Shown here piece after piece: positions 40,819-56,993 of a stretch of 64,000 nucleotides of DNA (position 1 is its first letter; each line of letters starts with the position of its first letter). The stretch comes from Somniosus microcephalus (lineage: Eukaryota): positions 82,460,001 through 82,524,000 of the forward strand of contig CM126208.1 of assembly GCA_052327205.1 (NCBI GenBank), read 5' to 3'. The notes beneath the pieces were generated by a model that was not told where the DNA came from, did no database searches, and saw nothing but the letters and a program-made list of their open reading frames with translations. The position numbers and the translations under genes are program-made.

Positions 40819-40908
40819 AATTCTACCTTGACAATTGAAGAATTTCATTCCAAACTTCAAGAAGCTACGAATTTCCCCCTCCGACCTTTTGTTATACCGT
40901 TTCTAAAG
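40819..40908 (+). CDS. RUNX1T1: RUNX1T1 exon 4 (NHR1/TAFH)
   Basis: ttgcag|AATTCT...AAG|gtattt; [30 protein letters not shown]; 90 nt. Confidence 0.97.
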
Positions 40909-42669
40909 GTATTTGCAACATTTCCCATTTATCTTCTAACCATTTGAAAATCTGTCCCTACCGAATTAACTGTGCAATTGGTATAGACAATTCTGTAACT
41001 GGTATTTTAAGGGTTAAAACCTGCTGTTACTGAAATATTAGAATAATAATACTTGCATTTATACTAGAAATTTGCCTTAATGACTTACTTTTCAGAGTTC
41101 AGTGAAGGATTTGTTGGCAAACCTGAAAGTTATGTTTAATAAAGGAAAAGAACATCAGTGTAGGGTTCCAGTTTATTCCAATAGTCCATAATTCATGTCT
41201 GATTCTACAGCTTCTGTTAGTATTTCTAAATCCGTGAAATAATTTCCTTTAGACTGTCGGATCAAATGCATGTTTTCCGCTAAGGATTTCAAATCTATTC
41301 CCACCTCCTCCTTCAAAAGAGTGCAGGAAATTGGATGGATATTTTTTTTCCCCTTGCTATTGCCCCTAAATTGTACCATCGGAAGTTGGGTGCACACCCT
41401 TCCATCATAGAACCCCAAGGAGCAGCTGGCGATCCCCTCTCACTGAACCGCCAGCAAATCCTGACCTAACTCTACAGAGTGGCTGCAGGAATAGGCAGGC
41501 GCATACCAACAAATGACTGACAGATTTTAAATAATAAATTAAAACTACTTTTGAAATGGCTTCAGTCACCAAGGCCCAGCTTGTTAGAAGTATACTTCTG
41601 TATGTGCTTGTTTTCTTGCGTGAACTGCCATTCCTTTCCAAGAACTGGCACGCGAAATCAAGATGGACTAATTGGGATTTGTCTGTGCCACAGTCCAACA
41701 TTCTAAAATATGAGCATCATTTTGAAAGCTTAAGGGTGTTTTGTTTATATATTTTTAATAAAAGCACATAATTGTTGCTTGCTTTTGGCCAAGCAACTAC
41801 AAGCGCTATGTTTGCATTGCATCATGCAAATGCCATTTCCTTTGTGAATATTACTGACTTTTTCATCGTGGAAACCGCTCCCTTTAGGATCAGGTTGGCG
41901 GTGAAAAAAGCCAAAAAAGCATACAAGGACACTTCCAGAATCTTCCCTCACTGCTGTACGCCATATGGTTACCATATCATTTCATAGGGGATCACTGGAA
42001 TCAAAGATGCAACTTTTTCTAATTTTAGTGCCTTTCCTCAAAGGAGACATTAATGACAAAAACCATATGGTTGTGGGAACGTGGACCTTAATAACTGCAT
42101 TCAATCCCAGCTGTAACAATATGCATTAAAGTCTTGTTTTCATTAGGCTAATGTAAGCCACAGACTCTTGATTCTATTTCATGTTACGGGGAATCATTTA
42201 CAGGAAAGATATTAGACACCATTATAATTACTTTCTCTGGTACTGGGATTCCACCCTCCCCCCACTACTTTGTGTTGTCACTTCCTTAGTTTGGTGAAGC
42301 ATTTAAATTGAAATTAACTCTTTGGGTACTGAAATTCAATGGAAATTTGAACATTTAAAAAAATATCTGCAAAAATGATTTTCCTGTGAATTTCAGATAT
42401 TGCATCTGATAAATGTATTGGATTCTCACAGTATTGCTTCTTTCAAGGCAGCTGTTAAAATTTTGATATAACACTACTAAACTTCAATAAACCTCCATAG
42501 TCTTCTACAGAATAACTCTTACAATATCAGTAAATGCATTTGTGCAAAACCTGGCAAAGTTTCTGTTTGTAAAGTAGGATAAGGGTTCAAATGTAGAGTT
42601 ACATGAATGTATTCCTTATTTTGTGTGGGGCACCTCCAGATTTCATATGTGCTGCTGAACCTGGCTCAC

Positions 42670-51664: not shown

Positions 51665-53215
51665 TTGTTATTTGGATGTTGGTGACCCTGGCAAGGCAGC
51701 ATTTATTGCTCATCCATAATTACCCTTGCAATCCTTGTGGTGATGTGCTCCCACAATGGTGTTATATAGGTAATTCCAGGGTATTGACCTCGCAATGAAG
51801 AAGAAATGGTGGTATATGTTCAAGTCAGGCTTATATGTGACTTGGAAGCGATGTTCCCTGGCATTACTGCTCTTACTCTACTTGGTGGTAGAGCTCACGA
51901 GGCTGGATGCTGCTGTTAGAGTAAGCTTGGTGAGTTGCTGCATCCAAAGTGTGTTGGTGGTGGAGGGAGTGGGTATTGAGTTCAATGGCAAGGTTGTTGA
52001 TCAAGTGGCTAACTCTGTCCCAAATGATGTTGAAGTTTTTGAATATTGTTGTGGCTGCACCCATCCAGGTGAGTGGTGAGTATTCCGTCACACTCCTGAA
52101 TTGAGCCTTGTAGATGGTGGATAGGCTTTGAGGTGTCAGAAGATGATCCATTCATCAGCATATCCAATCATTACTCTGCTGTTTTAGGCAGGGTGTTAAT
52201 TTGGCTGGGCAGTCCAGTTATGGTTCTAGTCAATGATGAGCCCGAGGATGTTGGTGGGAGCAACTTGATGATGGTACTGTTGAAGATCAGTGAGGTGGTT
52301 GGGCCATTTCTTGTTGGTTATCATTGCCAGGCACTTGCGTAGTGCCAGTGTTACTTGCCACATGTCAGCTCAAGTCTAGGTGTTGTCCATGCCCTGCCAT
52401 AGGCTTACAAGGGCTGCTTCATTATCTGAGGGGTTGTGGATGGAGCTGAACACCAGAATCATCAGCAAACGGCCATACTCTTGACCTTATGACAAAGGAA
52501 AAGTCATTGATGAAGCAGCTGAAGATAATTGAGCCAAGAGCACTGCCCTGAGGAACTCTAGCAGTAATATTCTAGGGCTACGGTGATTACCGTGACCATC
52601 TTCCTGTGTGTCAGGTATGACTCCAGCTATGGAGGGTGTTTCTCTGACCTCTCCTTGCATTTAGCTCTTGTGCCCATGCCTGTATAAAAGCTACGATGAG
52701 GTCTGGTACCCAATTGTTCTAGTGGAACCCAAGTTAAACATTAAACATGATGGCCTAGAAATTTGTCTTGGGCAGTGGCGCAAAACGGACAGTATCGGAT
52801 CGGTCGCCCGATATAGCAGCACCTGATACTCTGTTCCATTGCAGTCACTGGTACTGAATGTTGGGCGCTGCGTATAACGGGCAGGCCCGAGACAAATTTC
52901 TAGGCTGATGTGTCTAGGAATGTTGATGGGAGGAGCCTGGGATGTTGGCTAATAGAAATAACTCTGAGTGCGACTATGCCAGTCTGTTGCAGGACTAATT
53001 TTTGAGACAGTTCTTGCAATCTGGGCACCAATCATCAGTTGTTGTTGAGAATTTTGCAGGGTCACCTGGGCTGGGATTACTTGACTAATCCAAGGTCTGG
53101 TTGCTGCCAATAGGACAATCCAATATTTCTCTCATTGTTCTGTTTAATATTGGTTGTTTTAGAACTGTGGCTTGTTAGGCCACCTCAGAGAGCATTAAGA
53201 GTCAACCACAATTTG
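51665..53215 (-). mobile_element. Degraded non-LTR retrotransposon (RT C-terminal region)
   Basis: Minus ORF LLTPQSLSTIYKAQFRSVTEYSPLTW; decayed VPQGS.LG and FADD-like regions around 52455-52560. Confidence 0.6.
52753..52905. mobile_element. Palindromic MITE, same family as 710-894
   Basis: GCCTAGAAATTTGTCTTGGGC / GCCCGAGACAAATTTCTAGGC inverted ends. Confidence 0.75.
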
Positions 53216-53917
53216 TCAGACTCTTGCCTCCCCATATATTACATATATATTATAATATATATACTTGTTTTGTGCTTTTTTTTGTTTGTCTAGGACTAAC
53301 AAGTCATTACTGAAATCAGTATTGACTTGTTAGTTCTAGACGGGAATCATTTATAAAAAAAAATCTAAGTGGATCTTTAATTTATTGCAAACTACCAAGG
53401 ATCACACTATCTTCCTTTTGCATGGTAAATCTTTGATTTTGTGTATTTCAAATAAACTTGTACAGAGCTAGTTAGCTCCATAACAATGGACTGATCAGCA
53501 TTGAAATGTATGATACTTGTGCCTCCTGTTTGCTAATCAGATTGGTGCAGCATACAGCTTCCTACCAGTGCCGTCGCCATGACAACCACCTTGGTTGTTC
53601 CAGGTCTGGTAGCACACTTGCTTTCGTGCTGCATATTACTACTGGGACAACACTGTGTCTTTTCATGTGCATATGGCTGCAGAGCTCCAGTGTGGAATTG
53701 CAGCCAAATGCAATCTATGCTTTACCACATGATGCTACAGCAGTGGTGGGCAAAATACAGCCTGTGGGCCATATCTGGTCCACCAAGTCATTCTATCCAG
53801 CCCACTGGACGGGACAGAAATAGAACGCGAGCCGGAGCTCGAGCTGCACATTAGTCACTTTCACTTCTCGTGGGTCAGAGACGGACCCGAACTGTAGCCA
53901 GGAAACGCCCCGTAATA

Positions 53918-54250
53918 CAGGAAACTTTTTTTATCCGGCACCGACGGGACCAACGTGGTGCCGGTTCATCAAAAATTCCGGATAACCGAGAGCTATAGTA
54001 AAAGATAGAGAGAGCTGAGAGCTCCGTATAAAGCAACAAACCCTGTTGCTTAGCAACAGGTGCAGAACAATGGCCACAAGTTCCAAGTGTCTCTGTAGCT
54101 TGGCAACAGCTGCAGCCACACCCAATTGCACAGCAACAGATCGAGGAAGGCAAGTAATATGAAGTAAAACTTACCTGAACCTACTCCTGAATTTTGCCGG
54201 TTAACCGAGATTTCCGGTTATTTAGGTGCCGGTAAATCGAAAGTTTCCTG
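53918..54250 (+). mobile_element. Tc1/mariner-type MITE, copy 3 (diverged relative of 26621)
   Basis: TA|CAGGAAACTT...AAGTTTCCTG|TA; shares GGCACCGACGGGAC and CTGTTGCTTAGCAACAG. Confidence 0.8.
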
Positions 54251-54395
54251 TAATTCAATTTATCAATTCGCAAAAGTGATTCTCCCCAGCCTGATCTTCA
54301 AAGGATAATGTTCCGCTTCTGGGCCCCAATGGCAGATGCCCACACCCTGAATGCACTGCACACTCGAACATACCCTATCATTTTAGAGTCGAGTC

Positions 54396-54536
54396 ATGGC
54401 TGCTCATCTCCATCTCTCCTTTACCAAAGAGACTGGCACTGCATCTTTCCTCTCCCGGTACTCCGAGTATGATGGCAGGGGGGTTCTCATCGCCGTCTTA
54501 GATACTGGAGTGGATCCCGGAGCACAAGAACTCTAG
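54396..54536 (+). pseudogene. TPP2: Captured fragment of tripeptidyl-peptidase II exon 1 (46-aa ORF)
   Basis: [46 protein letters not shown] versus human TPP2 [37 protein letters not shown] (recalled); followed by gtaatg. Confidence 0.85.
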
Positions 54537-54788
54537 GTAATGGCACGCGATTATAGATACTGCGCATGCCTCACTGCTTATAGAGCAATGTGTTTAGTCT
54601 GCCACCAGTTTTGTGGTCAATATTGTTTCTGTCTTAATGGAGGGCTCTTCATTTCAACCTTGCTGTTGCAGGGGGACCATGATGTGGGCTTATTTCTGCT
54701 CACTGGGTCAGTGTTCATGCTAATTGGAACTTCTGTTGAGTCTGGACTGTGCTGAGGCTGATAAAGGGTTTTGCGCACTGAATCGCTT

Positions 54789-55572
54789 AGAATCATAGAA
54801 TGGTTACAGCACAGTAGGAGGCCATTCAGCCCTTCGAGCCCATGCCAACTCTATGCAAGAGCACTTCAACTAGTCCCACTCCCCCGCCCTTTCCCCATAG
54901 CCCTGCAATTTTTTTCCCCTTCAGGTACTTATCCAGTTCCCTTTTGAAAGCCATGATTGAGTCTGCCTCCATCACCCTTGCATTCCAAATCCTAACACTT
55001 GCTGCATAAAAAAGCTTTTCTTCATGTCGCCTTTGGTTCTTCTGCCAGTCACCTTAAATCTGTGTCCTCTGGTTTTCGACCCTTCCGCCAATAGGAACAG
55101 TTTCTATCTACTCTCTCTAGACCCCTCGTGATTTTGAACACCTCCATCAAATCTCCTCTCAAAGTTCTCTGCTTTAAAGAGAATAACCCCAGCTTCTCCA
55201 GTCTATTCACGTAACTGAAGTCCCTCATCCCTGGAACCACTCTTGTAAATCTTTTCTGCACCCTCTCTAAGGCCTTCACATCATTCTTAAAGTGTGGTGC
55301 CCAGAATTGGACACAATACTCCAGTTGAGGTTGGACCAGTGTTTTATAAAGGTTCATCGTAACTTCCTTGCTTTTGTTCGCTATGCCTCTATTTATGAAG
55401 CCCAGGACCCCATATGCTTTTTAACCACTTTCTCAGCCTGCCCTGCCACCTTCAACGATGTGTGTACATATACTCCCAGGTCTCTCTGTTCATGCACCCC
55501 CTTTAGAATTGTACCCTTTAGTTTATATTACCTCTCCTCATTCTTCCTACTGAAATGTTTCACTTCGCACTT
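54789..55572 (-). mobile_element. CR1 LINE 3' fragment
   Basis: Minus ORF NLYKTLVQPQLEYCVQFWAP..LEKLGLFSL; AGAATCATAGAA tail. Confidence 0.88.
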
Positions 55573-55752
55573 CGAGGATAGCCTCGTACAGAGGTAGCCT
55601 TGAAATCAGATAGCAAAATAAGGAACAATGGATACCTGCATGGGGTACTGGAAATAACATAGCAAACGGCCAGCTGCACAGTCAAATATGTAACCCCTGT
55701 ATGTTTTCAAAGACCGTGCAAATGTAGCTGGTTCATTTCAAATGCTCTTACT

Positions 55753-55963
55753 CAGGGGTGGCCAATTATTTGGGCTGGAGGGGCACTTAACAGTACTGCA
55801 CGCGCAGTATCTCTTCCAGCTGCAGGAGCTGGTGAGAGGCTTGTGCGGGACTTCGTGATTGGTGTGAGACCACGCACCTTTGGGGGAACATTGGTGTGCG
55901 GCCCTCAACAGCTCGCCAAAACTTGTTAAGTGGCCCTCCAGCCCAAATAATTGCCCACCCCTG
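55753..55963. mobile_element. 211-bp hAT MITE forming the right end of the composite element
   Basis: 40-bp inverted arms (CAGGGGTGGCCAATTATTTGGGCTGGAGGGGCACTTAACA), 38/40 matching; its own flanks (CTCTTACT / TGCTACAG) do not form a TSD. Confidence 0.8.
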
Positions 55964-56172
55964 TGCTACAGCAATCCATGCTGACTAGCATCCCATCACT
56001 ATGAAAAGCCTGTGCAAAAACGCAGCTTCCAAGGGCAGCAAATAACTCATTGTGTTGTCAGGCCACTTTTGTTATTTGCTTATTCATTCATCTGTAAGGT
56101 CAGTGGGGTCTAGCAGTTCTCCCTATGTGGCTGCGCTGACTGATATTGTTTTGTGTGTCATTCTTCTTGCAG

Positions 56173-56354
56173 GCCAACCTGCCCCTGCTGCAGAGGGAGC
56201 TACTTCACTGCGCGCGCTTGGCCAAGCAGAACCCGGCACAGTACCTCGCACAGCATGAGCAGCTGCTGCTGGATGCCAGCACCACCTCACCCGTCGACTC
56301 CTCCGAGCTGCTGCTTGATGTTAATGAAAATGGGAAAAGGCGAACTCCAGACAG
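56173..56354 (+). CDS. RUNX1T1: RUNX1T1 exon 5 (end of NHR1; NLS region)
   Basis: ttgcag|GCC...AG|gtgaga; [60 protein letters not shown]; 182 nt. Confidence 0.97.
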
Positions 56355-56993
56355 GTGAGACAAATGGCAGCAATTTATCAACAGAATGGTTTCTTTTAGA
56401 GCCGAAATGTATCTGCGCAGATGCATCATGGGGGCAAAAAAGCATGCGAATGAATGCTGACTTGTGCTTTTTCTTCCTTAAATTGCAACAGCTTGTTGTC
56501 AACTGTGGAAATTAATTCTGAGTCAGGAAGCTCTTTTTTCTTTCTTCTTTGTTGAGTTAATTAATGAACCCATGGTACTGTGTTTAATCCTATCTCTAAT
56601 CTTTTTATGATGGCAAGAGATGAGTAACTAGGAAAATGCTGGTTTAAGGGAAACAACTGACAGTTTTGCTGCTTCTCTTCCTGCATATGGTCAGCTATGG
56701 ATGAGTAGCTACAGCGAGGCTCTGAGTCCATTAAAATAGCTCATTAAAAAGATCAATCTGTTTCTGTTTCTGCACTATCCTAGGAATGCATCAGTCATTG
56801 TACCTAACAAAATTTGACATTGGTATATAAGAGTAAATATGGTATCTACTTGAATTAGAATTTGGCAATATTGGAGTTAGGAGAGCCCCATGCTAATAAA
56901 GGAATGCTTTGTAAGCTTCTTCTTTTAGTACTACATTATAGTAGCTAGACCTTCGTCTTGAATTTATCTTTGATCATCTTGCCTATTTTGCAG

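Follow-up and report, generated by a model that had tools for sequence, protein, structure and literature searches.

The shark Somniosus microcephalus carries, within an intron of RUNX1T1, a 2,223-bp segment that has the ends of a hAT transposon and encloses a copy of the first exon of TPP2. The segment lies in a 64,000-nucleotide stretch of assembly GCA_052327205.1 (contig CM126208.1, positions 82,460,001 to 82,524,000 of the forward strand), referred to here as the window, and coordinates given without a contig are those of the window. It is very probably one old copy of a non-autonomous hAT family that spread the 5′ end of TPP2 by transposition. A first-pass annotation, made from the letters of the window, had described a hAT 'Pack' element carrying TPP2 exon 1; this structure is borne out, and the element is multicopy, with distinct target site duplications (TSDs). 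The idea that TPP2 DNA was captured at the window locus had to be dropped, as the element arrived there ready-made.

Evidence for transposition and size of the family

The 8-bp sequence TGCTACAG is present at 53733-53740 and again at 55964-55971, bracketing 2,223 bp (53741-55963) whose terminal inverted repeats (TIRs), CAGTGGTGGGCAA and CAGGGGTGGGCAA (the latter as reverse complement), match at 12 of 13 positions, as the first-pass annotation had reported. A chance origin is excluded, since dozens of loci share these ends but have different TSDs. The window corresponds to G000:C7:82460001-82524000 in a 6.45-Gb assembly. The annotation had proposed looking for further copies with different 8-bp TSDs, and these exist: among 46 copies examined, 39 have both ends recognisable, and the flanking 8-mers match at six or more of the eight positions in 26 of them, compared with 3.8% for mismatched pairs. 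Three of the remaining 13 seem to be off by one base where an end is damaged, and five belong to a subfamily with an additional outer end (the outer-end subfamily) that had been scored at its inner end; rescored at the outer end, all five copies in which this end matched have a TSD of 7-8/8. In the sampled copies homology stops at the TIRs, the flanks differ and each TSD is individual.

The duplicated target sites are biased, with T at position 4 in 64 of 78 and A at position 5 in 58 of 78. An 8-bp TSD and a TIR of 5-27 bp characterize the hAT superfamily, in which the Buster group has the TSD consensus nnnTAnnn, according to the available part of the source (PMC3517528); the family shows the 8-bp TSD, a TIR in this range and target sites that fit the Buster consensus. 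It is a non-autonomous hAT family, likely of Buster/Charlie type, the Buster label being taken from the target sites alone because no transposase was found in the open frames of blocks D and E.

The TPP2-containing stretch 54260-54787 matches about 40 loci at 77-93% identity (best 40 of 393 candidates scored), and 29 other loci are colinear with the window element, several of them partially, once two nested repeat blocks are left out. An exon-1 22-mer, with up to two mismatches allowed, has 275 genomic matches, one of which is the real TPP2, and its reversed control has none; the genome holds at least 274 extra copies of TPP2 exon 1. Because this 22-mer detects only 22 of 29 and 20 of 29 copies in two samples chosen independently of the pattern, the corrected family size is roughly 360-400 copies. 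A right-end 22-mer has 580 genomic matches (control 1), and on contigs C1-C3 a near-exact exon match lies upstream of 13 of the 42 exact right ends, where 45% would be expected if all carried the exon, which assigns about two thirds of exact right ends, very roughly, to TPP2-bearing copies. A family hAT end lies within 2.5 kb of 19 of 20 fetched exon-1 matches, a non-random set picked from the zero-mismatch list. The copies are spread over more than 25 contigs, with pairwise differences of about 10-20%. Clusters of copies occur at G000:C35:38.9-56.3 Mb and C32:0.8-1.8 Mb, those on C35 scoring near-identically, and both clusters likely spread by segmental duplication after insertion.

The TPP2 donor and a probable single capture

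The TPP2 gene is located at C10:106.32-106.54 Mb, with exon 1 at G000:C10:106.32 Mb, and it matches the 5′ untranslated region (UTR), exon and intron of family copies. In the window, an alignment of the cargo to TPP2, also proposed by the first-pass annotation, gives 98% identity over the UTR piece and 88% over 115 bp of exon 1, followed by the splice donor and the start of intron 1, which substantiates the exon-1 copy. Longer family members carry up to about 500 bp of intron 1. The presence of intron and splice donor denotes a capture at the DNA level rather than a retrocopy, and the full-length TPP2 proteins closest to the exon copy are those of sharks and rays. Neither hAT end has a BLAST match within 20 kb around the donor exon, the closest match to a 20-mer motif being 15/20; the parental locus is identifiable and unlinked to a TIR element, as the definition of a Pack-TIR element requires.

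A 17-bp deletion in exon 1 was scored in 44 of the 47 copies aligned across it and is absent from the donor gene; conversely, an intact counterpart of the deleted stretch occurs at only one of 236 loci examined, which is the TPP2 gene. Because the copies share a deletion that the donor does not have, their sequences point to a single capture that preceded amplification. At the left junction the hAT end, 64 bp in, joins the UTR through a shared GC, a 2-bp microhomology, while in the outer-end subfamily the same left end continues into different sequence. The sequence upstream of the TPP2 5′UTR piece is absent from the captured DNA.

Other TPP2-related sequences were encountered. A second multi-exon TPP2-like gene lies at G000:C1:456.14-456.28 Mb (loci L092, L093, L095 and L158-L162) and, because it is multi-exon and its exons are 57-82% identical to shark TPP2, the genome has two TPP2 paralogs; the C1 paralog was rejected as donor, its exon 1 having only 64% protein identity and no DNA match. 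Three middle exons of TPP2 recur as a partial, inverted duplicate on the contig of the gene itself (G000:C10:119.26-119.30 Mb), and C3:364414405-364414692 is a separate match to the C-terminal 100 residues. The exon search was topped by two short proteins of Mustelus (P0001, P0003), which retain residues lost in the hAT family and so do not represent the family as it stands. They belong to a set of short gene models of Mustelus asterias (P0001, P0003, P0242-P0246), in which P0001 and P0003 consist of a near-intact TPP2 exon 1 plus unrelated sequence, possibly an independent exon-1 amplification.

Layout of the window copy

The features of the window copy and its immediate surroundings are as follows.

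53733-53740: left TSD TGCTACAG, fitting nnnTAnnn
53741-53804, plus strand: hAT left end, with the 13-bp TIR at 53741-53753 and subterminal sequence, common to the whole family
53805-53854, plus strand: TPP2 5′UTR piece, 98% identical to G000:C10:106321490-106321539
53855-53915, plus strand: cargo B, part 1 of an insert of about 200 bp within the captured 5′UTR, donor not found
53916-54252: 333-bp Tc1/mariner-type miniature inverted-repeat transposable element (MITE) between two TA dinucleotides, a later insertion
54253-54385, plus strand: cargo B, part 2
54386-54536, plus strand: TPP2 exon 1 copy, with the final 10 nt of the UTR, ATG at 54396, both the 17-bp deletion of the family and the 4-bp deletion of the subfamily, and the last codon changed from CAG to TAG
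54537-54556, plus strand: TPP2 splice donor and start of intron 1, in the family variant with a 5-bp insertion
54557-54569, minus strand: short copy, inverted, of the palindrome inside the element, with AG microhomology at the join
54570-54787, plus strand: cargo C, part 1 (about 400 bp in total), subfamily-defining, donor not found
54788-55570, minus strand: 3′ fragment of a high-copy long interspersed nuclear element (LINE), CR1-like, a later insertion
55571-55752, plus strand: cargo C, part 2
55753-55792, minus strand: inverted duplicate, inside the element, of the right end's last 40 bp, a fixed feature of the subfamily without its own TSD
55797-55893, plus strand: right half of an older hAT MITE nested in the element; complete, it spans about 155 bp and has an 8-bp TSD of its own, GTGTGCGG
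55894-55963, plus strand: hAT right end, with the TIR at 55951-55963
55964-55971: right TSD TGCTACAG
56173-56355, plus strand: the RUNX1T1 (CBFA2T1/ETO) exon that follows 200 bp downstream, of phase 0, in the host gene and outside the element

Only about 235 bp of the window copy derive from TPP2, a further 600 bp or so being other cargo whose origin was not traced, and the core of a window-type element measures about 1.1 kb once the nested repeats are removed. The copy thereby holds 100-5,000 bp of non-transposon DNA between the two ends of one TIR element, the cargo size by which Pack-TIRs are defined. The internal DNA had been called GC-rich and unique: its GC content (0.43-0.57, against 0.41 for the window) makes it only mildly GC-rich, and other copies contain all of it apart from the two nested repeats. 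No RNA families were matched in the element.

Subfamilies and additional cargo

Internal deletions and additional cargo (B, C, D, E and F) distinguish at least six structural subfamilies. Long forms consist of left end, UTR, exon, 500 bp of intron, the 500-bp block D, the nested hAT MITE and the right end, and short forms are internal deletions of them. Block D is preceded by TPP2 intron at 18 of 20 loci; one of the others is an apparent deletion derivative and one has unrelated upstream sequence. Just inside the right end, L127, L125, L141 and other long copies hold the nested MITE complete, about 155 bp long and with an 8-bp TSD of its own, GTGTGCGG; it is older, having been frozen into the family ahead of amplification. 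The two ends form a normal asymmetric pair used across the family.

The window subfamily, of about 40-50 copies, keeps B, while block C replaces most of the intron, D and half of the nested MITE. On its left, C is bordered by the 13-bp inverted copy of the internal palindrome, entered via AG microhomology, and on its right by the inverted copy of the right end's last 40 bp. Because block C, read on the opposite strand, appears as a right end followed by about 400 bp, it may be the flank of a progenitor copy, brought in by template switching or by alternative transposition of the kind known from maize. A pattern search with cargo C gave 27 matches, 26 of them at known subfamily loci and the one new match being another copy.

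The outer-end subfamily has an extra left end and block E upstream, and its inner left end is preceded by a frozen 8-mer, mostly TTCTAGCC. A true outer TSD together with a frozen inner flank, the mark of a two-element composite, occurs in this subfamily (5/5) and not in the window copy; the outer-end subfamily arose when two elements moved by their outer ends. The proposal that two different hAT ends were mobilised together accordingly describes this sister subfamily and is not supported at the window locus, where the ends are the normal family pair.

The UTR insert B (about 200 bp) is present in many copies and the GC-rich insert F in few. Cargo F (L148:4197-4500, also in L135, L152, L156, L164 and L168) is 300 bp long with 59% GC, replaces most of the TPP2 UTR and holds a splice-donor-like site; it likely comes from the 5′ end of another gene. 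With CpG observed/expected ratios by column majority of 1.21 for B, 1.05 for E and 0.74 for F, these three are consistent with an origin in unmethylated DNA. In one subfamily copy (L183:4570-4642), a further, private inverted duplicate of its own left end replaces part of exon 1, a fold-back-type event.

Decay of the copies

Subfamily majorities differ from TPP2 by 3-5% (9% in the small F group), and copies differ from their own subfamily majority by 7-9%. Divergence reaches 22-26% at CpG sites against 5-9% elsewhere: only 55% of CpGs are kept in the copies (1097/1986), and 711 of the 889 losses read TG or CA, while the TPP2 gene keeps 25 of 30. Non-CpG divergence amounts to 3.5-8%. Dating with a rate of 7e-10 per generation, given with a tenfold interval in the part of the source available (PMC10587355), yields tens of millions of generations and was set aside as too loose to use. 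The family is old.

The family-wide 17-bp deletion shifts the reading frame, which an extra 4-bp deletion of the window subfamily restores in most copies; the frame is open from ATG to donor in 9 of 33 such copies and in 4 of 37 others. Stop-creating changes number 12 among 70 copies, base-matched site-class tests find no consistent non-synonymous deficit, and the exon of the window copy ends in a TAG stop. The window copy is likely a dead relic. Among sequencing runs, 20 from 9 studies have sequence words in common with the region, with no RNA run listed as holding them, an overlap that says nothing about presence, empty sites or expression.

Origin of the family and competing explanations

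The favoured course of events probably began with one capture, in which the hAT left end, 64 bp in, was joined to the TPP2 5′UTR via a microhomology of about 2 bp, and some 500 bp of intron 1 were copied together with the UTR and exon 1, likeliest by template switching in replication or gap repair. Given the common 17-bp deletion, amplification followed this one capture, a transposase acting in trans likely driving cut-and-paste spread to several hundred sites; the copies occupy different sites and have their own 8-bp TSDs. Subfamilies differ through loss of internal sequence and through the added cargo B, C, D, E and F; that of the window exchanged most of the intron for C, set between two short inverted copies of its own right part, probably by template switching in several steps, and C may be the flank of a progenitor copy. 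The window copy, settled in the RUNX1T1 intron, gained the LINE fragment and the young MITE later, and the copies were probably methylated and left to decay neutrally.

For the founding capture we lean towards template switching and favour it over a different birth of the same family, a serious but clearly less probable route in which two hAT insertions flanked TPP2 exon 1 on an allele since lost, the outer ends were mobilised together and the inner ends were deleted. Such a two-element pick-up did operate in this family, as the true outer TSD and frozen inner 8-mer of the outer-end subfamily attest, it has been described in plants in the part of the literature available (PMC8903248), and block D with the right end could be the remnant of a right-hand element; yet the hAT/TPP2 junctions contain neither an inner TIR nor a frozen TSD, the left one shows the 2-bp microhomology, and no hAT remnant lies within 20 kb of the donor exon. 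This rival bears on the capture step only. The first-pass annotation had gone further and read the right end as a separate, complete 211-bp MITE, mobilised together with a left hAT end around TPP2 DNA at the locus itself, which is very unlikely. The 211-bp unit at 55753-55963 does have 40-bp inverted arms (38/40 paired), and the left subterminal sequence does differ. The appearance of a MITE is explained by the internal inverted copy of the right end's last 40 bp: of 17 subfamily copies, 9 have CTCTTACT as the eight bases to the left of the inner TIR and the other eight have close variants of it, which makes these bases element sequence and not a TSD, and only 0-5 of the eight positions agree with the right TSD. 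The middle of the unit consists for the most part of one half of another, nested hAT MITE, the left and right ends are the same in other subfamilies, which lack the inner TIR, and no stand-alone 211-bp copy occurs among the matches examined (best 40 of 1123 candidates scored), the best full-length ones carrying adjoining subfamily sequence.

Segmental duplication, retrocopying or misassembly of the TPP2 5′ region is negligible as an explanation of the whole family. A few copies are near-identical to each other and a partial TPP2 duplicate exists at C10:119.3 Mb, but homology that stops at the TIRs, differing flanks and individual TSDs, the intron and splice donor, and a distribution over more than 25 contigs with about 10-20% mutual difference speak against it. 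Selection on the copies as functional exons or regulatory modules, for example as a TPP2-derived first exon for host genes, could be argued from the 4-bp and 17-bp deletions, which together put the stretch between ATG and an intact phase-0 donor back in frame (9/33 open versus 4/37), and from the next RUNX1T1 exon, which is of phase 0 and on the same strand. A random indel restores the frame one time in three, however, stops and frameshifts are common (the 12 stop changes in 70 copies), no consistent non-synonymous deficit is seen, the window copy ends in TAG, and TPP2 sequence upstream of the 5′UTR piece was not captured, so that this reading appears quite improbable. A bolder scenario, in which one hAT lineage serially captured CpG-island 5′ pieces (from TPP2 and from the donors of B and F), amplified them to hundreds and, through the frame-restored subfamily, gave some host genes a new TPP2-derived first exon, is a long shot.

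Several observations weigh against a simple history of transposition and neutral decay. Part of the copy count is likely due to segmental duplication and not transposition (equal-score matches on C35; L208/L209). One of six site-class tests hints at fewer non-synonymous changes (p=0.019, uncorrected), and a pooled count leans towards a non-synonymous deficit (0.053 versus 0.076) in a sample partly chosen by protein similarity. Among the top 30 of 184 candidates, inspected for B, all 30 are family copies and no donor was found; for C, no outsider was recognised among 40 of 50 DNA-search candidates scored, and because both donors are missing we can only infer that B and C come from the host. Both states of the 5-bp intron marker are found with B and likewise with F, which does not fit a simple tree and implies exchange between copies. 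Eleven open frames from D and E have no Pfam transposase match, no genome-wide transposase search having been made, and a search via block D found neither an autonomous partner nor a cargo-free parent.

Host gene and later insertions

The host gene is RUNX1T1/CBFA2T1, as first annotated, and the element is inserted in sense orientation between the exons at 40819-40911 and 56173-56355. It follows the third RUNX1T1 coding exon seen in the window, and the intron number 4 assigned to the site is right provided that a single short coding exon, the first, precedes the window's three upstream.

Because both nested repeats (53916-54252 and 54788-55570) are missing from the other family copies examined, they are later arrivals. 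The 333-bp MITE, whose earlier assignment to Tc1/mariner holds, has TIRs and is flanked by TA on both sides in 30 of 31 full-length matches at other loci, a target duplication linked to that superfamily in the available text of PMC8277862. It is young, with 96-98% identity to its other copies, and a query containing it drew 3956 first-look candidates; its family represents recent Tc1/mariner-type activity. The LINE fragment, 88-90% identical to its best copies elsewhere, is a high-copy repeat, as annotated, while the name CR1 remains the annotation's own, although we take the 3′ tail pattern to fit CR1. A MITE-like pair of 21-nt inverted arms, 111 nt apart and 95% complementary, lies at 52753-52905 and is unrelated to the element.

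Comparison with known systems

The comparisons below draw on the available portions of the sources cited. Plant Pack-MULE, Pack-CACTA and Pack-hAT elements resemble the shark family in being non-autonomous, in carrying gene fragments, in forming subfamilies with distinct cargo and in mobilisation by outer ends (PMC8903248). The host here is a vertebrate, and multi-gene capture is suggested, with TPP2 as the only donor identified. A question raised in plants becomes testable in a vertebrate, namely whether silencing of hundreds of exon-1 copies spills onto TPP2.

Helitrons move by a rolling-circle mechanism and lack TIRs and 8-bp TSDs, unlike the cut-and-paste shark family. Those of bats are nevertheless a vertebrate parallel, as their captures favour promoter, 5′UTR, first exon and first intron, and such captures reach the highest copy numbers (PMC4224331). 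In the fungus Pseudocercospora fijiensis, a hAT element captured the histone H3 gene, likewise a housekeeping gene, leaving hundreds of inactivated copies beside an intact original (PMC6710886); there the hAT is complete and inactivation proceeds through repeat-induced point mutation (RIP), whereas the shark element is non-autonomous, carries a first exon and shows CpG loss. Composite insertions of maize Ac/Ds, which combine termini with duplicated flanking DNA, suggest a possible route to the inner inverted TIR and cargo C (PMC4270019); the maize work is experimental, and the likeness here is one of structure only.

Closest are the Pack-TIRs of animals. Tan et al. surveyed 100 genomes and report 370 Pack-TIRs, four of them multicopy (in frog and alligator) and none in elephant shark, the multicopy example shown having three copies, and for their origin propose template switching followed by transposition (FoSTeST) (PMC8277862). 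Pack-hAT-N8_XT of Xenopus tropicalis similarly has hAT ends around the 5′ piece of a host gene, more than one copy, distinct TSDs and a transposon-free donor (PMC8277862). The filters of that survey demand at least 90% identity to the parent and a unique top hit (PMC8277862); the window copy falls outside them, with 88% over the exon and hundreds of similar matches, and they would likely miss such a family. Searches of open-access literature by title or abstract start, with the repeat databases Repbase and Dfam outside their scope, returned no high-copy vertebrate Pack-TIR, and no paper on a TPP2 transposon in shark was found in that literature.

The shark family fits the structural definition of a multicopy Pack-TIR and differs from the animal examples in its at least 274 copies, its coding exon plus intron and its six or more structural subfamilies. 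Capture followed by amplification to several hundred copies lies about a hundredfold above the three-copy vertebrate example of Tan et al., who conclude, in the text available, that nearly all gene-carrying TIR elements of vertebrate reference genomes are relics in a single copy (PMC8277862). The shark family suggests that filters for unique hits, together with repeat masking, conceal families of high copy number, and copies of this one will confuse TPP2 annotation and read mapping. Its subfamilies record successive rearrangements (deletion, new cargo, inverted end duplication and two-element pick-up), making the mechanisms readable in one genome. Pack-TIRs were already known in animals; what is new is their high-copy scale in a vertebrate.

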